From sequence record OZ335964.1: DNA of 64,000 nucleotides; one strand, written 5' to 3'. Of the stretch, positions 2,808 to 54,482 are shown in pieces. This DNA comes from a phage. Both the position numbers and the translations under genes were made by a program. The stretch's first letter is position 1. Each line of letters opens with the position of its first letter. The notes beneath the pieces are model-generated. The model ran no database searches and was not told the DNA's origin. It saw nothing but the letters and a program-made list of their open reading frames with translations.

Positions 2808-3041
2808 TTATTTTCCTTCTGGGATATAGTCGATGATTAAAGAAAATTCATCTTCTGATACATTATAGCTATGTGAGATTGTACCCGTAAAGACCTCAAG
2901 ATCCGGTGACTTGATATTACACGGATCGATAATCACCGGAACGCCGCAATCTCTCAAAAATAATTTGGCGAAATACGGCACAAGGTCAGTTTCAAACTCT
3001 GCTTCTTCCAGCAAACGGGAAATGTTAATTTTCAATCTCAT
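2808..3041 (-). CDS. hypothetical protein
   Basis: 77 aa ORF with ATG start, tightly packed between gp55 and next gene. Confidence 0.45.
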
Positions 3042-3558
3042 AAAATTGGTCCAGGCTAGGCAATTCCTCGGTCAATACATCTTCAACCTTTGGCGCTTTC
3101 GGTTTATTGACCGATTCCTCGTAGTTGTTGATTTTATCGTAAATGTCCTGTATGAATGCCTCATCCGCAATCTGGCACATATCAGCGTCGCGTTCGTCAT
3201 ATACATGATGCACAAAATATTTGTATTTTGCGGCTGTCGCTGTTCTTTCTTTTTTAATGCGCTGCACAAAAGCATTAAAGCACGCTTGCGTAATGTAAGC
3301 ATGAGGATTTTTATACTTTGTCTCGTCAAAATTAATCAAACCCTTGACCGCCGCTTCGATTCCGTCGTCGATCATTTCTTCGCGCCATGTTTGACTATAG
3401 CCAGAAAAGTTAAAACGCCGTGATAGATTTTTAGAGATTTGCATAATTGCTAGACCGATTTGGTCGCTCATTGGCACTTGCCGACCTTCTGCTGCAATTC
3501 GTTGTTTCCAACGGCAAATTTCTTCGTAAAGCTCTTTATTGTTTACATAATCAGACAC
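3025..3558 (-). CDS. 55: late-transcription sigma factor gp55
   Basis: 177 aa; YVNNKEL...FNFSGY...[29 protein letters not shown] matches remembered T4 gp55; GTG start with GAGGGT RBS. Confidence 0.9.
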
Positions 3559-14626: not shown

Positions 14627-15100
14627 CTATCTTAATCTTTGTATAAATTGTTTCTTATACTTCTTCGTGATCTCTTCTCTTGTATCCGCGTCACAATAAT
14701 CGAAACCTTCTGCGTCCATAATAGCAACCATCTCCGCGCGTGTCAAGCGTGAAAATCGTTTTACTTTATCAACAGCATATTGAGGATGTAAATGATTGTT
14801 GGTGTAGTCTCCTTTGATGTAATTAACATAGTTTGTAGCCCAAACAACGAAATCAGCACCTAAAGCACCAACACCAAACCGTTTAAAGTCTCCGGTCAAC
14901 GATCCTTCTAGGCGGTTGCAACACGAATGAAGCAATCCCCTTACGCGGCCTTGCCCTTTCCCATCTAGATCGTGGTCGTGGTCAAGATGGTTTTTGCTCA
15001 TATCCTCAAAAAGTGGCAATTGACAAAGGGGGCAAATGCCCCCCTGTTTTTCGAATAGTTCTTGTTTGTACTCTTTAGCACTCTTAGCAGTCAGTAACAT
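14627..15100 (-). CDS. 49: endonuclease VII (Holliday junction resolvase) gp49
   Basis: MLLTAK...CPLCQ...HLDHDHDLDG...GRVRGLLHSCCN matches remembered T4 EndoVII; ATG at 15100 after GGAGGG. Confidence 0.9.
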   Translation of the reverse strand: MLLTAKSAKEYKQELFEKQGGICPLCQLPLFEDMSKNHLDHDHDLDGKGQGRVRGLLHSCCNRLEGSLTGDFKRFGVGALGADFVVWATNYVNYIKGDYTNNHLHPQYAVDKVKRFSRLTRAEMVAIMDAEGFDYCDADTREEITKKYKKQFIQRLR

Positions 15101-15124
15101 AAATTCACCCTCCAAAGAAGGTAT

Positions 15125-15414: not shown

Positions 15415-16227
15415 TCAATCTACGTTAGTTACATAAACTTCTTGTGTATCAGAAGACTTGCCTCCTGAACGATCTAGGCAATAGGTCTTATTCAACAGGA
15501 CGCAGTTTAGATCATTCCTCTTGATAAAGTCAAGAAGATGATCATTTACCTTTCCCTTATGATGCGTGACATTACTGATACCAAACTGAAAACCACGCAC
15601 CATAATAGATTCCACCCACTGATAGAATTTAATCTCTTCCTCGTCACTCCAGAACTTATTATATTCCGCAGAAGTGATAAGGTACGGCGGGTCCAAATAA
15701 ACGAAATCGCCTGGCAAGATCTCGATCTCGTCATATCGTCCAGAAGTAAAATTGATTCGACCGTCTTTGTTTTCTTCTTTAAAATTCAGGACACGCTCTA
15801 CCGCGTTTTCGTTAAAAGTCCGGCGACCAAAATTAGCATTAAATTCGCCCTTCCGGTTATGTCGGTTAATGTTGCTAAAACTATGCTGAATCAACACAAA
15901 CAGCGATAGCGGATCTGGATTCTCGTTATACTTCTTACGGAATGTCATGTAAGCGTCTTTATCTTCGCGAGACAAACCATTCTCGGCAATAATCCGCTTG
16001 ATCGTAGAAACCGGATCAGGACACTCGTCAATGGCCTTGTAAGCGTCAATTAAACGATGGTCGTAGTCATTAGCCAGCACATCACCTTCGACGTACAGAG
16101 ACACGCTCAAGCCACCACAAAAGGCATCGACAAAGCGGTTATAGTGCTTAGGGAAATACTTACTAACACCAGGCAATAACTTTTCCTTATTGCCCGTATA
16201 GGGAATTAAACCTAATGCTTTCTTCAT
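15415..16227 (-). CDS. dam: DNA adenine methyltransferase Dam (GATC-type N6-adenine MTase)
   Basis: FVDAFCGGLSVSL SAM motif, DFVYLDPPYLITSAEYNKFWSDEEE matches remembered T4 Dam. Confidence 0.9.
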   Translation of the reverse strand: MKKALGLIPYTGNKEKLLPGVSKYFPKHYNRFVDAFCGGLSVSLYVEGDVLANDYDHRLIDAYKAIDECPDPVSTIKRIIAENGLSREDKDAYMTFRKKYNENPDPLSLFVLIQHSFSNINRHNRKGEFNANFGRRTFNENAVERVLNFKEENKDGRINFTSGRYDEIEILPGDFVYLDPPYLITSAEYNKFWSDEEEIKFYQWVESIMVRGFQFGISNVTHHKGKVNDHLLDFIKRNDLNCVLLNKTYCLDRSGGKSSDTQEVYVTNVD

Positions 16228-16962: not shown

Positions 16963-17176
16963 CAAATTCTAAGAAATATTCTGGAACGATATAACCGTTA
17001 AAGTCATTGCACTTATAAAAATGTGGTGCATTTAATGCTGGATGAGCATTAGTAAAGAGTTTACCCTCTAGAAACAGAATGTAATTAATAGGTCTAATAC
17101 CGACAGAATCAGGATCTAATCCCTTTTCTCTCAGTTCAGCCAGCGTTAAAACTCGTCCAGATCGTAACTTAGCCAT
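16955..17176 (-). CDS. hypothetical protein
   Basis: 73 aa ATG-initiated ORF. Confidence 0.45.
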   Translation of the reverse strand: MAKLRSGRVLTLAELREKGLDPDSVGIRPINYILFLEGKLFTNAHPALNAPHFYKCNDFNGYIVPEYFLEFDD

Positions 17177-17462
17177 GATTTACCCCAAATTCATCAAGAT
17201 TGTGTCGCAGCATTTCAGAGTATTTTTCTACTTCCTTGATCTTAGTGTGGATATCCACGATCTCATCTTCACTATCAGATAGTTTAATGGCAATCGCGAG
17301 CGTGCTTTTACCAGCTTTCATAGTCTCTTTCCGTTCAACCAATAGATCCGCGTGTTTCAATAGCAATTCTTCACGTCGAACATAAGCGACGGTCAAAGCC
17401 TCATCAGCAATTTCTAAAGCATTTTCAGCGACACCAACAACCATTTTACGAGTAGACAGCAT
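17169..17462 (-). CDS. hypothetical protein (predicted helical)
   Basis: 97 aa ATG-initiated ORF. Confidence 0.45.
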   Translation of the reverse strand: MLSTRKMVVGVAENALEIADEALTVAYVRREELLLKHADLLVERKETMKAGKSTLAIAIKLSDSEDEIVDIHTKIKEVEKYSEMLRHNLDEFGVNHG

Positions 17463-20571: not shown

Positions 20572-20599
20572 ATTATAGCACTATGACTTTCATTGTCAA
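20572..20599 (-). promoter_or_regulatory. sigma70-like early promoter (TTGACA-N16-TATAAT)
   Basis: minus strand; preceded by intrinsic terminator and A-tract. Confidence 0.55.
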
Positions 20600-50900: not shown

Positions 50901-51037
50901 TTGCAATGAGTCCACTGTTTGACCAGTCGGCGGTAACATTCTCTATGTTCCGTGAACTTGTAGATAAACGGTTGAAGGACAATGTAGGGAATCCACGAGA
51001 TCCGAAGAATCCGACACAGAGGAAAATTAATGGCTAA
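47951..51037 (+). CDS. 7: baseplate wedge initiator gp7
   Basis: 1028 aa (T4 gp7 about 1032 aa); synteny. Confidence 0.85.
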   Translation: MIKAPSVTSLTIEKLSANQAYITWDDVGENFFYFVELAETRTRDGEIIPVDELSWVNLGYTADQNWFEDKNLFPEYYYKFRVAVAAEGFEQSKWVETEEFQTFKTNAYNFSMMREFNLANEFIKEKFTYDNREYVKFNTDLIQASLMKEDFVFSPEYANMTNISNYIVVDENFHEIQDHIEKVCTDINRTMLAEMNGVLYLFERFQPIVKVSNDKGQSWKAYKAFNDRVGNPVSRTCVYQSKTTTYVLGYDRIFYGRQASDTRWSADDVRFSDDTITFAKVGDENDLGFDVEVFGVFSRLTGDTTKYAEAMACSDDYLWVGAKDVIRRIRLKNTPVDTVQGSPTFGEKIFDPDVIRVTGNDKAVIQKMDVIDGKLLVFVTGEVKQRYQDPTKPENVVPSDDAGVYLIGSDGLSFQRVFGNTPQEREYIQHGFSNMSTNGDEVFISHYNHHFESILPDPETAAKYELGEAVKYSQEPTYLTDKKIHQTTFRASYDDLRIWELGPQAYYNEADYTWMRRNGVRVWITNDNRPLVVYPEVIYTQEVDTSGILDQNRVNREVYDKGTVTCYLNNVKFEGFKQYASGVMFHKNTGEIIGFYQFNYRVRDQVGVYWKPTNVAFVAELQNQVREVPWVPVHYDREQDPDLRPLLNKMTPDSFLLENENFRKFSEYYLQFLSDGSGTYYNKLKNLIKNKYPREQDAYEYLWSEMNKRNIYADKNKRDAVVRFFESRKSDFYSTKGVEASYKFLFKLLYNEDVEIEVESQAGLEYDIVVSSTNIDEDIVGRTIYTPTGRANVTYLEREYEGGRLRWRVTIHNLIGRFEEGQVIKSEKTAFEGMILVGVRGKELLSSSIDYINRSRSQYTMKIKSALPVSRYANDVMRFVHPVGFGFIGVTLLTMFINSGLSMKHTETIIQSLKNYKFDSGLPSVYPDRVADLDVDGNIKKDPLTGKALYLTSPLIGDEFPVPPEYDQENSELFHGLKASERRFAMSPLFDQSAVTFSMFRELVDKRLKDNVGNPRDPKNPTQRKING

Positions 51038-52025
51038 TGAAAATAGTGTGATCTATCGCTCAATCATTACTAGCAAATTCAGGACAGAGAAACTTCTGAA
51101 TTTCTATAATTCTGTAGGCGATGGGGCAAATCAAATTACAATTTATGGAACGTTTGGACGTTCGGAGCCGTGGTCAGAAAACGAAAAAGAGGTGGGCTTT
51201 GCCCCACCTTATCCGACCGATTCAACGGCTGGCGTTGTTGATATGTGGACCCATATGATGGGGGCGGTTAAGATTAACAAATCACTTCTTGATGCGGTTA
51301 TCCCTCGTAAAGATTGGGGTGATACCGGACAGGATAACCCGCGCACATTCTTTATCAATGATATTGTTGTTGTTAACTCAGCACCATATAACCGAACTGA
51401 TGTTGGTAGCGGCTGGATGGTGTATCGCGTAACCGATGTTCCTGATCGCGGTTACTGCTCGATTTCAAGCATTGACGCTAAAGTAGAGTGTTTGAAGCTG
51501 GGCGGAAAGTGGACACCTACCCATGAATCAATTGCGCCACCTGTAGGAAAGGGCGATTCTATTGATATGGGTGATGGGTATCGTTGGGAATATCTGTACA
51601 CAATTCCACCTGATGCGGCGATCAACCGTTGCACCAATGAACATATTGTTGTACCGTTCCCCGATGAACTGCGACAAGATCCGGCGCGTTGGGGCTATGA
51701 CAATGTGATCACCTGGTATAATGACTATAATCTGCTTTATCGGCTGAAAGTAGTAACTTTGCGTTTTCAGGCTTATATGGACTCTGCGCAATTCCCAACT
51801 ACCGCGTTAGTGGGTAATACTGGTTTCCGTCAGTTAAGCATTATCCTTAACCCATTGGAAAAGAAAGCACGCCCTAGCGATCCAGACGTTAAAGCGGTTA
51901 AAGATAAGTACCGACCGCAAGACTTAGAGCCACACTCAGGCGAAATGATCTACATGGAAAACCGACAACCTATCGTTCGGTCATTAGATCAAACAGAACT
52001 TGTTTCTGTATTGTTTGAGTTCTAA
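51030..52025 (+). CDS. 8: baseplate wedge protein gp8
   Basis: 331 aa; synteny; terminator follows. Confidence 0.85.
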   Translation: MANENSVIYRSIITSKFRTEKLLNFYNSVGDGANQITIYGTFGRSEPWSENEKEVGFAPPYPTDSTAGVVDMWTHMMGAVKINKSLLDAVIPRKDWGDTGQDNPRTFFINDIVVVNSAPYNRTDVGSGWMVYRVTDVPDRGYCSISSIDAKVECLKLGGKWTPTHESIAPPVGKGDSIDMGDGYRWEYLYTIPPDAAINRCTNEHIVVPFPDELRQDPARWGYDNVITWYNDYNLLYRLKVVTLRFQAYMDSAQFPTTALVGNTGFRQLSIILNPLEKKARPSDPDVKAVKDKYRPQDLEPHSGEMIYMENRQPIVRSLDQTELVSVLFEF

Positions 52026-52040
52026 GTGTATGATTTAAAA

Positions 52041-52066
52041 GCCAATTCGAGAGAGTTGGCTTTTTC
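52041..52066 (+). terminator. intrinsic terminator after gp8
   Basis: GCCAA..UUGGC hairpin + UUUUU. Confidence 0.6.
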
Positions 52067-52077
52067 TATTTTGGGTG

Positions 52078-52106
52078 TTGACAGTCTTGTCTGGTAAAGG
52101 TATAAT
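52078..52106 (+). promoter_or_regulatory. consensus sigma70 promoter (TTGACA-N17-TATAAT) driving the methyltransferase moron
   Basis: exact consensus hexamers with 17 nt spacer, 30 nt upstream of ATG 52136, right after gp8 terminator. Confidence 0.7.
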
Positions 52107-52135
52107 GTTCACATCTAAACAACGGAGGATAAATT

Positions 52136-52393
52136 ATGGCACGTCGTAAATTTACAGATAATTGTGAAGCAATTCAGGTATCCCCTTGCGGTTGGGATGT
52201 GATCGCGAACGGTGAAAAGATCGGAGAGATCATCGATCATACTCATTCATCACTAGCCGATTACACCGATGAACTGTGGGAGGGTATCAACTTCATGAAT
52301 GACACTAAACGATTCAAGACTATCGACGAAGCTATCTATTTTGTGTATAATCCAACTTTCGGTATGTGGGGAACTAGAAAATGGCACGCGTAA
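52136..52393 (+). CDS. hypothetical protein (moron gene 1)
   Basis: 85 aa; GGAGG RBS; downstream of consensus sigma70 promoter. Confidence 0.5.
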   Translation: MARRKFTDNCEAIQVSPCGWDVIANGEKIGEIIDHTHSSLADYTDELWEGINFMNDTKRFKTIDEAIYFVYNPTFGMWGTRKWHA

Positions 52394-52713
52394 ATATTAA
52401 ATTGCATTACACAATGAATAAAGCTAAGTTCCCAATGCAAAAGCATTACTATGGTCTACGTGCACAAGATCCAAAACTCTATGGTACTCATTGGTTTTGT
52501 AAACATGATAACCAATGGCACACATACGAAGAAATGCACGAGATGATGAAACAGGGTATTGAATTTAGTTATTCTAATTATGACCATCGTATAACTTGCA
52601 TTCGAAAATTGAAACGATGGATTCGTAAGAATCCGCAATTTAAAAACTTTGTGTTCTTTATGTCTCATGTTTATTTGGGGCATAGCGTTACCGTAACAGC
52701 AAAGGTTAAATAA
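52381..52713 (+). CDS. hypothetical protein (moron gene 2)
   Basis: 110 aa; overlaps gene 1 stop; same ATGGCACG start context. Confidence 0.5.
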   Translation: MARVNIKLHYTMNKAKFPMQKHYYGLRAQDPKLYGTHWFCKHDNQWHTYEEMHEMMKQGIEFSYSNYDHRITCIRKLKRWIRKNPQFKNFVFFMSHVYLGHSVTVTAKVK

Positions 52714-53552
52714 TGGCACGACTTTCTAAACAAGAACAAAAATTACACGATCGAGCAATGGAGTTGATTAATTCAGATCGTCCATTGACATATGAAGAAA
52801 AAGAATTTTGCTATAATAACTATCATGGCGATGGGCTAGGTGGTTCCGGTGCATTCTTTACACCAGAAGGTCTTGCATGGGATTTTACCATCGATGCACA
52901 TTGCACAGGAAAAGTATTAGATCTTTGTGCTGGGATCGGTCGCTTATCTTTTTGTATGTTACATCGTTGTAAGCCAGAAAAGATCGTATGCGTCGAACTC
53001 AATCCAGAATTTGCGCGTATAGGTAAACGACTATTACCGGAAGCAGAATGGATCACCAGCGATGTATTCGAATTTGAGTCAAACGAAAAATTCGATGTGG
53101 TGATCAGCAATCCACCTTTCGGGAAAATCAATACAACCGACACAAAGGATGTATTTGAGTACACTGGCGGCGAATTTGAATTTAAGGTTATGACATTAGG
53201 CCAGAAGTTTGCCGATGTAGGTTATTTTATTGTTCCTACTGGTTCCGCTGGTTTTGCCTATTCTGGTAGACCTTATTATGACGGGACCATGAAGTCTAAT
53301 AAATATCTAAAATGGAGCAAACAAACTGGTTTGGTGACTTATGCCGGATGTGGGATCGATACATCAATCTATCGCGATGAATGGCATAGTACCAACGTTT
53401 TAACAGAAGTGGTTGAGGTTCGGTATTACGAGAAAGAAGCCGTAGAAGCGCCTAAATCACGTCCTAACGAACAAATAGAAGAAAGTAAGGAGATTACCTT
53501 ACCGAAACAGGAAAGCGAGTCTGGGACGCTCTCAGATTTGTTTGACATTTAA
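52713..53552 (+). CDS. gamma-class N6-adenine methyltransferase (putative DNA MTase)
   Basis: 279 aa; motif order FFTP, then VLDLCAGIGRL (SAM binding), then NPPFG (catalytic). Confidence 0.7.
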   Translation: MARLSKQEQKLHDRAMELINSDRPLTYEEKEFCYNNYHGDGLGGSGAFFTPEGLAWDFTIDAHCTGKVLDLCAGIGRLSFCMLHRCKPEKIVCVELNPEFARIGKRLLPEAEWITSDVFEFESNEKFDVVISNPPFGKINTTDTKDVFEYTGGEFEFKVMTLGQKFADVGYFIVPTGSAGFAYSGRPYYDGTMKSNKYLKWSKQTGLVTYAGCGIDTSIYRDEWHSTNVLTEVVEVRYYEKEAVEAPKSRPNEQIEESKEITLPKQESESGTLSDLFDI

Positions 53553-53556
53553 TTAT

Positions 53557-53583
53557 AAGCCGTCCTTGTGGGCGGCTTTTTTG
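53557..53583 (+). terminator. intrinsic terminator after methyltransferase moron
   Basis: GCCGUCC..GGCGGC hairpin + UUUUUU. Confidence 0.6.
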
Positions 53584-53592
53584 TATGTATTT

Positions 53593-53600
53593 TATAAATA
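53593..53600 (+). promoter_or_regulatory. T4-type late promoter TATAAATA (upstream of gp9)
   Basis: exact TATAAATA 28 nt upstream of gp9 ATG, after the moron terminator. Confidence 0.6.
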
Positions 53601-53627: not shown

Positions 53628-54482
53628 ATGGCACAAGTTCCAAAGAAAAGAATAGACACAGGTACTGTCGGCAATCCATCGACTGGCGATATCTTATATG
53701 ATGGCGGTAATAAAATTAACGATAACTTTGATTCAATATATGACGCATTTGCTGATCAGCGGTTTAAAGACGTAGACCACGGCGTGGGAAGAATGGTTAT
53801 TCATGCAACCGGATACTATCAGAAGCATCCACGTCAAAGCTACGCTGGTTCCGCTGTTGAGATTGGGAGTCTACACGATATCGATACAACTCAAGGCGCA
53901 CTTATTGCTATTCTACCTAAAGCAAAGGTTGGCGAGGGTGTTGTATTCATAAATAGTAACGGTAGCCTTTCAACGACGACACCGCTCAATATTCGAACTC
54001 AAGCAGGTGATTCTATTAGCGGTTATTCCGGTGATGCTACAATAACACAACCATTTTCAAAAGTCACTGTTTGGTGTACTGCCGTTGAAGGTAGTCGCGT
54101 AACATGGCGATTGGGTATCGAAAGTATGTTTACCGATACAACGACGCCATTAGATAAAACAGTTAACGTAACTGGAGTAGCAACAAACGTTGCTATTGCC
54201 GCAAAAACAGAATACGTTTCCATCAAATTATTAACTACCGCTAGCAATACATCCGGTTCAAAAATGCGTTCAAGTGAAACGCTACTGATGATTGATTCTA
54301 AAGCCGGAAAAGTTTATGCGACGGAATATGCAGTTTTGCAGAAGACAGAAGATGAACTATACACGGTTCGTTATTTCATCGGTTCCGGCGATAAAGTATA
54401 TGCAGAGTATAAGGCTACTGGCGAAAATATTCGTTTAGCAGTTAAAGCCGTAGACACTATTAAAATCGGGGTTGCTACATGA
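53628..54482 (+). CDS. 9: baseplate wedge / long-tail-fibre socket protein gp9
   Basis: PKKRIDTGTVGNPSTGDILYDGGNKINDNFDSIYDAF...HATGYYQK matches remembered T4 gp9 N-terminus. Confidence 0.9.
   Translation: MAQVPKKRIDTGTVGNPSTGDILYDGGNKINDNFDSIYDAFADQRFKDVDHGVGRMVIHATGYYQKHPRQSYAGSAVEIGSLHDIDTTQGALIAILPKAKVGEGVVFINSNGSLSTTTPLNIRTQAGDSISGYSGDATITQPFSKVTVWCTAVEGSRVTWRLGIESMFTDTTTPLDKTVNVTGVATNVAIAAKTEYVSIKLLTTASNTSGSKMRSSETLLMIDSKAGKVYATEYAVLQKTEDELYTVRYFIGSGDKVYAEYKATGENIRLAVKAVDTIKIGVAT

Follow-up and report, generated by a model that had tools for sequence, protein, structure and literature searches.

The window studied here is a stretch of 64,000 nucleotides (nt) of phage DNA (record OZ335964.1), and our subject is a 1.6-kb insert of three open reading frames (ORFs), the last of which encodes a putative DNA adenine methyltransferase, between the baseplate genes gp8 and gp9. 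The window belongs to a Krischvirus (RB49/phi1-like), with identities of 95.9-98.7% over this region to the best 40 of the 59 matching records. The insert was found by megablast in 59/59 near-identical Krischvirus-type records, RB49, phi1, JSE, and GEC-3S among them, and at least 80% of the 2.6-kb query was covered in 58 of the 59. By contrast, gp8 and gp9 without the insert are 63 bp (T2), 60 bp (CC31), or 9 bp (one Tulanevirus and one Slopekvirus) apart, and the 1.6-kb insert was not seen at the gp8|gp9 junction of T2, CC31, one Tulanevirus, or one Slopekvirus. Since gp8 and gp9 are adjacent in four other T4-like genera, the insert is derived and specific to the Krischvirus lineage. A cassette with an adenine methyltransferase had largely been annotated already at this position; what is new is a clamp-like tail on the enzyme.

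An earlier note, made from the letters of the window alone, had described a self-contained module here. Every element that it listed was located (hairpins, promoter, three ORFs, late promoter, and a Dam gene elsewhere in the window), and its description of an insert with its own promoter and terminator holds for genes that lie 9-63 bp apart in relatives. From 5' to 3', the order is gp8, a hairpin terminator, a sigma-70 promoter, the three ORFs, a second terminator, TATAAATA, and gp9. A foreign base composition of the cassette was ruled out by its GC content of 36-41%, compared to a genome value of about 40%. The features are as follows.

51030..52025, + strand: gp8 baseplate wedge subunit (Pfam Phage-Gp8, 1e-143; PHROG 977)
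52037..52074, + strand: promoter-early stem-loop (PeSL), stem-loop and T-run (hairpin 52037-52064, 12-bp stem; labeled a terminator in both the GEC-3S record and the RB49 supplement)
52078..52106, + strand: sigma-70 early promoter (TTGACA 52078-52083, TATAAT 52101-52106, 17-bp spacer, 12/12 consensus)
52136..52393, + strand: ORF85 (phi1 ORF140; phrog_16603)
52381..52713, + strand: ORF110 (phi1 ORF142; phrog_12630)
52713..53432, + strand: methyltransferase catalytic core, residues 1-240 (FFTP 48-51, VLDLCAGIGRL 68-78, NPPF 133-136)
53433..53525, + strand: disordered acidic Pro/Ser-rich linker, residues 241-271 (predicted local distance difference test score, pLDDT, mostly <50 from residue 245)
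53526..53549, + strand: TLSDLFDI, predicted gp45 sliding-clamp-binding epitope, from its likeness to the Krischvirus gp43 tail
53557..53578, + strand: terminator hairpin (-15.9 kcal/mol, z = -3.8; equivalent hairpin in the T2 and CC31 gap)
53593..53600, + strand: gp9 late promoter of the T4 type, TATAAATA (RB49 prediction Pl:75319)
53628..54482, + strand: gp9 baseplate wedge tail-fibre connector (Pfam T4_gp9_10_N, 1e-40)
3025..3471, - strand: gene 55 (late sigma factor), 3' part, with a C-terminus as in annotated phi1 gp55; comparator clamp-binding end
15415..16227, - strand: Dam-type adenine methyltransferase (270 aa, DPPY; C-terminus ...EVYVTNVD identical to that of annotated phi1 Dam)

The methyltransferase and its clamp-like tail

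The third ORF of the cassette (279 aa, 52713-53552) encodes FFTP, VLDLCAGIGRL (motif I), and NPPFG (motif IV) in gamma-like motif order. The catalytic motifs are invariant among 32 homologues, and the ratio of nonsynonymous to synonymous substitution rates (dN/dS) is 0.04 compared to both GEC-3S and phi1. The protein belongs to the uncharacterized family phrog_3820 (1e-117); the Pfam models MTS, Methyltransf_25, and Eco57I scored above their cut-offs, and no NCBIfam model came near its cut-off. In the AlphaFold2 model (mean pLDDT 84.8), residues 1-240 form a Rossmann fold with an N-terminal helical segment, and residues 241-279 are disordered. The best fold matches were all adenine-N6 enzymes, with a core resembling HsdM or METTL5, and the longest structural alignments (207-213 residues, nearly equal Z) were to the DNA gamma-class proteins HsdM and lmo1582. 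Judged by its motifs and modeled fold, the methyltransferase is of the N6-adenine type with a gamma-like motif order. The motifs on which the earlier note based a gamma-class assignment were found in the order given, and the fold matches supported N6-adenine chemistry; the model shows no separate target-recognition domain C-terminal to the catalytic part.

Previous labels for this gene differ. Nolan et al. (2006, Table 3) recorded RB49ORF143w as a "Methyltransferase small domain" hit, some GenBank records call it a "release factor glutamine methyltransferase," and the NCBIfam PrmC model is the top match by E-value (1.7e-9). However, a PrmC/HemK-like enzyme that modifies glutamine in release factors or ribosomal proteins is scarcely credible, and we rejected the annotation: the TIGR03534 score of 37.6 bits falls far short of the 199.1 cut-off, with the match confined to residues 64-137. 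A literature search for methylome or transcript data on this gene found none.

The tail is disordered in the AlphaFold2 model save for a short terminal helix. The methyltransferase ends in ...ESGTLSDLFDI, compared to ...KVASLTDLFDI for gp43 of phi1, which is from the same lineage. Among 357 ORFs of at least 50 aa from the window and from phi1 1-50 kb, the methyltransferase matched the last nine gp43 residues in register at 6/9 positions, whereas the 355 other ORFs matched at 3/9 or fewer. The phi1 gp43 tail (...YEKKASLFDMFD) and the RB69 gp43 tail SLFDMFD(F) (...YEKVASLTDLFD) line up position by position, and the last 11 residues of RB69 gp43 have been co-crystallized with RB69 gp45. The C-termini of gp43, gp55, and gp33 have been described as "highly similar hydrophobic and acidic" gp45 epitopes that have variable linkers and are interchangeable; that of gp55, encoded in the window, is a published gp45-binding epitope. 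The gp45 gene itself lies outside the 64-kb window. In close relatives of the methyltransferase, the terminal motif is kept (TLTDLFDI, SLSMFDI, and TLDFVDFSEI) despite unrelated linkers (proteins P0001, P0002, and P0004). A gp45-binding tail, as predicted from this likeness, would be the best evidence at hand for a DNA substrate, and it had been overlooked in the earlier note. In the literature, no clamp-binding motif on a prokaryotic or phage methyltransferase was found, with incomplete coverage that leaves novelty unproven, and papers on Slopekvirus DNA modification do not include this gene among the phage methyltransferases that they list.

Gene 43 and the methyltransferase gene share their final 14 nt (TGTTTGACATTTAA) but no longer stretch. 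Gene conversion as the origin of the tail was set aside, because a 14-nt identity is too short to separate copying from convergence.

A tail of this kind might also make the protein a clamp competitor or regulator, whose occupancy of gp45 tunes replication or the gp45-dependent switch to late transcription, with methylation being secondary. In favor of this role, the gp43 and gp55 tails that it resembles compete for the same gp45 sites, and the gene is embedded in a late operon. Nonetheless, we consider such a role very unlikely, since a decoy needs no 240-residue enzyme, the catalytic motifs are invariant and under strong purifying selection, and tail-less homologues are common.

Several other ORFs of the window bear on the search for such tails. 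The Dam protein at 15415-16227, which the earlier note had named as a second adenine methyltransferase, is indeed encoded by a minus-strand ORF with DPPY, and it has no clamp tail. The sole other candidate among the C-termini of the window is that of a 97-aa ORF (17169-17462, minus strand), which ends in ...HNLDEFGVNHG and has a weak LDxF (gp55/gp33-type) likeness. In addition, a 162-aa ORF (14627-15115, minus strand) contains an internal CPLCQLPLFED that fits the beta-clamp motif QLxLF; the match lies beside a CxxC pair and may be coincidence. From its position adjoining dam, this ORF may encode endonuclease VII (gp49).

Tails and genomic contexts of the phrog_3820 family

A profile-free scan of 1.84 billion cluster representatives returned 731 relatives of the methyltransferase at E ≤ 0.001, 187 of them at E ≤ 1e-30, and tail statistics were compiled on near full-length representatives of 50%-identity clusters. 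The motif Q[LFIMV]x[LMF][FL] occurred within the last 12 residues of 23/142 family representatives, compared to 0/437 control ORFs and a rate of 0.0003 per 12 residues in the bodies of the family proteins. A looser motif, [SDTAEGNQ][LM]F, was found at the same place in 42/142 family representatives compared to 15/437 controls (0.012 per 12 residues in the bodies). Among 30 short forms (≤248 aa), none had the Q-motif and one had the looser motif. The published beta-clamp consensus is QL[SD]LF, and tails in the family include QLSLFDAA, QLTLF, QLALF, and QLDLFGEAA, each running to the stop codon.

The tails differ between the elements that carry the gene. The prophage homologues stop at about 236-242 aa and are encoded by the last gene at the prophage end, whereas the Krischvirus, RB16, and Slopekvirus forms add an acidic proline-rich linker and a conserved end. 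In RB16 and Slopekvirus, the gene is flanked by helicase gene 41 and primase gene 61. A lambdoid-phage homologue, which ends in QQLDLFGEAA, is encoded immediately downstream of replication genes O and P, with ninB following, and the homologue of a 52-kb Rhizobium phage ends in GQLSLFGDAA. The gene also occurs in 115 Pseudomonas plasmid records; in both megaplasmid homologues that were translated, an 80-residue Ala/Pro linker leads to the end AQLSLFDAA. Relatives on plasmids, and on phages without a T4-type clamp gene, often have the beta-clamp motif QLSLF or QLDLF at the end, whereas gp43-like tails occur on elements with a gp45 gene of their own. These comparisons indicate that the tail motif is an optional, repeatedly gained module and that the type of tail tracks the context. 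All family contexts examined were phage, prophage, or plasmid; this restriction to mobile DNA elements, together with the location of homologues next to replication genes, supports a DNA-directed role.

Two further explanations were weighed against this evidence. In line with the earlier note, the enzyme could be a free orphan DNA methyltransferase that acts distributively in restriction evasion, with a gp43-like end that arose by chance or serves another purpose, such as stability or binding of another partner. The gamma-like N6-adenine motifs and fold, carriage on mobile DNA elements, and the many tail-less homologues (the 236-242-aa prophage forms and the Aeromonas phage forms) are all consistent with such an enzyme. 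Against it stand the excess of identities to the cognate clamp tail over all other ORFs compared, conservation of the motif while the linker diverges, and the independent appearance of beta-clamp motifs in plasmid, lambdoid-phage, and Rhizobium-phage homologues, and we judge this explanation to be unlikely. Still less likely, in our estimate, is an RNA adenine methyltransferase of the METTL5, Erm, or KsgA type that reprograms early translation by acting on host rRNA, tRNA, or phage mRNA. Clamp-binding tails are sensible only on an enzyme that acts on DNA, the longest structural alignments are to DNA enzymes of the gamma class, and the homologues are found beside replication genes and on plasmids and prophages rather than in translation-related contexts.

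Some homologues are larger. The protein of Dickeya phage JA11 (L029) has an annotated length of about 389 aa and extends at least 140 residues past the core, and further domains are fused to the core in JA11 and in proteins P0124, P0126, P0132, and P0167 (370-556 aa), the core of P0167 starting at residue 277. In Klebsiella phage Miro, a 162-aa gene just downstream of the methyltransferase gene (L005 3283-3771) is annotated as "major capsid protein, T4 gp23/gp24-like," which is probably a mis-annotation, since the gene sits at the RB16 gp61.1 position.

Regulatory elements and small ORFs of the cassette

The PeSL of RB49 and phi1 is a regulatory cassette (Arbiol et al., 2010, PMC2839356; Comeau et al., 2014, PMC4122927), and positions 52037-52135 hold all of its parts, namely the stem-loop, T-rich tract, -35 and -10 sequences, Shine-Dalgarno sequence, and start codon. 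The 5' hairpin (52037-52064) has a folding energy of -15.6 kcal/mol (z = -3.7), which was equaled by 0/200 shuffled sequences, and TTGACA-17-TATAAT at 52078-52106 is the sole 12/12 match in 50.5-55 kb. Five perfect 12/12 promoters occur on the two strands of the 64-kb window, all upstream of ORFs, compared to a chance expectation of about 0.02 (our estimate, assuming uniform base composition). Loose promoter-like matches were not enriched in the region (13 observed vs 13.1 in shuffled sequence). Among relatives, the cassette promoter has a 16-bp spacer in GEC-3S and TTTACA in phi1. The window contains at least a dozen minus-strand early promoters composed of a stem-loop, T-run, GGTGTTGACA, -10, and CACATCGAAAC leader, and positions 52030-52140 align with five minus-strand PeSLs over the stem-loop, T-run, GGTGTTGACA, -10, and leader; GGTG before the promoter and CACATC in the leader after it are likewise common to other PeSLs. 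The minus-strand PeSL-type promoters at 9948-37727 are 11-12/12 matches, several with the same upstream hairpin and T-run; their -35 starts include 37727, 35738, 23032, 20599, and 9975, and the perfect 12/12 matches are at 20599, 17848, 12478, and 9975. By these alignments, the hairpin and promoter are a member of the repeated PeSL family rather than a one-off element. A terminator and a perfect promoter open the cassette, as in the earlier note, whose reading needs the correction that this PeSL family is repeated in the genome.

Promoter and terminator activity in vivo has been shown for other PeSL copies (PeSL193/192, 206/205, and 211/210), and PeSL-PeSL recombination has been proposed to shuffle ORFs via mini-circles (Arbiol et al., 2010, PMC2839356). 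A few PeSLs have been reported within virion modules, where they lie beside function-unknown genes. The RB49 supplement of Nolan et al. (2006) lists the terminators "8-->RB49ORF140w" and "RB49ORF143w-->9," the early promoter Pe:73830 (+), and the late promoter Pl:75319, and the GEC-3S GenBank record annotates the cassette promoter and both terminators. The regulatory features of the cassette are largely published or annotated already, and by themselves add little.

The elements at the 3' end have a different origin. The copy of TATAAATA at 53593-53600 is the sole plus-strand copy within 47-56.5 kb, and TATAAATA is at the equivalent position in T2, CC31, and two divergent metagenomic relatives of the Krischviruses (L033 and L035). 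In T2 and CC31, the insert-free gp8|gp9 gap is made up of a GC-rich hairpin followed by a T-run and TATAAATA. Because T2 and CC31 carry the same elements without the insert, this comparison implies that the 3' terminator and late promoter are an ancestral T-even gp8|gp9 element and not part of the insert. The terminator and gp9 late promoter that the earlier note had listed after the three ORFs are both present but already belonged to the T2/CC31-type junction. Aligned to the PeSLs, the 3' hairpin matches in the stem-loop part, lacks the -35 and spacer, and has TATAAATA in the place of the -10. The simplest history would be that a unit of stem-loop, early promoter, and ORF recombined with the resident junction hairpin to give stem-loop, early promoter, ORFs, stem-loop, and late promoter; a topology of stem-loop, early promoter, ORFs, and stem-loop is predicted by the PeSL mini-circle model.

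A second late promoter has been suggested inside the cassette. Nolan et al. (2006) predicted a weak RB49 late promoter, Pl:74451 (score 9.4), at the ORF110/methyltransferase junction, where GTTAAATAATG is found at window positions ~52690-52712 (RB49 74451-74493) and overlaps the methyltransferase start codon. This site is probably not functional; it would be relevant if the methyltransferase is also made late.

The three ORFs of the cassette (85, 110, and 279 aa) have stops and starts that overlap or abut. ATGGCAC opens all three ORFs and gp9 (52136, 52381, 52713, and 53628; MAR.../MAQ...), and ATGGCACG is common to the three cassette ORFs. These shared starts could result from selection for translation initiation or could mark recombination joints close to the ATG, where PeSL crossovers have been mapped.

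No function could be assigned to ORF85 or ORF110 from Pfam, NCBIfam, or PHROGs. The AlphaFold2 model of ORF110 has a pLDDT of 63.8 and no significant fold match (best Foldseek PDB E = 1.4), and ORF110 forms only five clusters in a database of 5.8 billion proteins. ORF85 was found in 59 Krischvirus-type records and three rV5-like phages and is absent from L033 and L035. The overlapping ORF85/ORF110 pair occurs in the same order in rV5-like Vequintavirus coliphages, with 58-70% amino acid identity (58-60% for ORF110), and ORF110 is far commoner than ORF85 among these phages. In the rV5-like phage HMD-6 (L003 2256-2830), the one locus examined, the pair is followed by unrelated ORFs and no methyltransferase gene. 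This distribution indicates exchange of ORF85 and ORF110 between unrelated E. coli myovirus lineages. Within Krischvirus, ORF110 occurs as two alleles (about 98-100% vs about 72% identity, RB49 being in the latter group), whereas ORF85 stays >90% and the methyltransferase >96% identical, in genomes that are otherwise 96-99% identical; this pattern looks like localized gene replacement within the cassette. In the original RB49 record (AY343333.1, 73902-74145), the match to ORF85 is split in two (together 95% of the query), which points to a frameshift or sequencing error; in the newer RB49 assembly, OZ035808, the whole cassette is matched without a break.

The order in L033 is gp8, hairpin, TTGACA-17-TATAAT, methyltransferase, hairpin, TATAAATA, and gp9, with no small ORFs at all. 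L035 has a similar order, but with GATACT as the -10 and one unrelated 154-aa ORF before the methyltransferase. The methyltransferases of these two relatives are 58-60% identical to that of the window by global alignment (BLASTP, 65% over 87-88% of the query). Homologues in RB16, Slopekvirus, and prophages are likewise without ORF85/ORF110 neighbors. The insertion site and methyltransferase are fixed, and the ORFs between the PeSL and the methyltransferase vary from none to one 154-aa ORF to the ORF85/ORF110 pair. Across these genomes, the small ORFs appear as swappable passengers and the methyltransferase as the conserved, selected payload. A requirement for the small ORFs as specificity or regulatory subunits was rejected, because they are missing or replaced in L033 and L035 and because the pair and the methyltransferase also occur separately in the loci examined. 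The suggestion in the earlier note that they act as regulators or specificity factors is unlikely for the same reasons, including the HMD-6 pair that has no methyltransferase.

Proposed role and comparison with known systems

We read the region as a PeSL-driven early-gene cassette at the natural gp8|gp9 operon boundary, and we favor, with moderate confidence, the interpretation that it supplies a DNA adenine methyltransferase that is expressed early and tethered to the replication clamp. Host sigma-70 RNA polymerase would start at 52078-52106 soon after infection, read the three ORFs, and stop at 53557-53578. The hairpin at 52037-52064 would halt late transcripts from gp6-8, and gp9 would restart from its own TATAAATA. 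This transcription scheme draws on the sequence and on the experiments with other PeSLs. The methyltransferase, made before replication, would dock via its tail on gp45 clamps loaded on replicating phage DNA and methylate adenines in newly made DNA, which would leave the progeny modified even though replication is very fast. Protection from restriction in the next host would be the likely benefit, and restriction evasion by methylation, as proposed in the earlier note, would be plausible. The broader proposal, that phrog_3820 is a hitherto unrecognized class of clamp-tethered DNA adenine methyltransferases on mobile elements in which the motif is swapped to match the clamp that replicates the element, seems to us evenly balanced between true and false.

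Several observations weigh against tethering or against a DNA substrate. The methyltransferase tails of RB16 and Miro (NLFTFTIE/DLFTFTIE) share only an (N/D)LF core with the corresponding gp43 ends (SLNTLFGDDW/SLNDLFGDW); gp33 and gp55 of these phages end in TLDDFM and TLEMFL. About 63% of the tail-bearing family members have no recognizable motif, and the motif is missing in several T4-like homologues, namely those of Aeromonas Ceceduovirus and Ishigurovirus, of phiM7, and of a Yersinia jumbo phage. Solved structures with the nearest folds include rRNA N6-methyladenosine enzymes, and a separate target-recognition or DNA-binding domain is not visible in the AlphaFold2 model, where residues 140-240 complete the Rossmann fold. 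Finally, nucleoside analysis by high-performance liquid chromatography-mass spectrometry (HPLC-MS) of Krischvirus TB34, which carries the gene, revealed no detectable modified DNA. This result argues against dense methylation; low-level N6-methyldeoxyadenosine may have gone unscored.

Krischviruses SAP and TB34 both carry the cassette. SAP DNA contains glucosylated methyl-deoxycytidines, whereas the DNA of TB34, which is 99.96% identical, is canonical, and a search for pathway genes identified none (2026, PMC13390438).

If the enzyme is tethered as proposed, it would be the first prokaryotic or viral counterpart of replication-coupled methylation by DNMT1 and PCNA, and it would explain how the progeny of a phage with rapid replication and unmodified cytosines become fully methylated. 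Binding of the tail to the clamp would provide a simple, portable way to couple protective methylation to a phage or plasmid replication fork and would add a new type of client to the gp45/beta-clamp "tool belt." The same interpretation would yield a sequence rule, that the motif matches the clamp, which can be checked across hundreds of mobile elements, and it would settle the conflicting database labels (PrmC, RNA, or DNA methylase) in favor of DNA. The enzyme would then also be an overlooked candidate for unexplained restriction resistance in cytosine-unmodified T4-like therapy phages (Krischvirus, Slopekvirus, and RB43-like).

The cassette resembles the PeSLs of RB49 and phi1 in having a stem-loop, AT/T-run, sigma-70 consensus, Shine-Dalgarno sequence, and ATG before function-unknown ORFs. 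Unlike other PeSLs, it lies in a virion module and not in a hyperplastic region, is fixed in all Krischvirus-type genomes examined and in their divergent relatives instead of being strain-variable, and is bounded at its 3' edge by the ancestral terminator and late promoter instead of a second full PeSL. It also resembles morons, a concept reportedly introduced by Juhala, Hendrix, and colleagues in 2000 for phages HK97 and HK022, in that extra genes with their own promoter and terminator lie between genes that are adjacent in related phages. A terminator is present here as in morons, but its hairpin is that of the ancestral junction. In contrast to the HK97/HK022 morons, this cassette is in a strictly lytic T4-like phage, is without repressed-prophage expression, and is not foreign in composition; the classic moron positions, at prophage ends, are held by the tail-less bacterial homologues.

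The enzyme was also compared with gamma-class N6-adenine DNA methyltransferases (M.TaqI, type I HsdM, and the Eco57I family) and with the METTL5/PH1948 RNA m6A enzymes. It has no appended target-recognition domain, unlike M.TaqI, and no HsdS partner, and it scores below all curated family cut-offs except those of Pfam MTS, Methyltransf_25, and Eco57I. Like T4 Dam, it is a phage-encoded adenine methyltransferase with a presumed role in restriction protection. However, enzymes of the T4 Dam type are alpha-class, with DPPY, a differently arranged motif I, and no clamp tail, whereas the cassette enzyme is gamma-like with a tail. That tail shares with the gp43, gp55, and gp33 epitopes a hydrophobic and acidic peptide at the extreme C-terminus and a variable flexible linker, and it is near-identical to the end of the cognate gp43. 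The polymerase, the clamp loader, and late-transcription factors are known to bind gp45, as does the ligase in a different mode; here, the tail is on a methyltransferase, and binding is predicted. DNMT1 offers a parallel, as a DNA methyltransferase drawn to newly replicated DNA by a short sliding-clamp motif, the mode of recruitment predicted here. DNMT1 is a eukaryotic cytosine-C5 maintenance enzyme with a PCNA motif, whereas the enzymes here appear to be small N6-adenine methyltransferases of phages or plasmids with a C-terminal motif of the gp45 or beta type.

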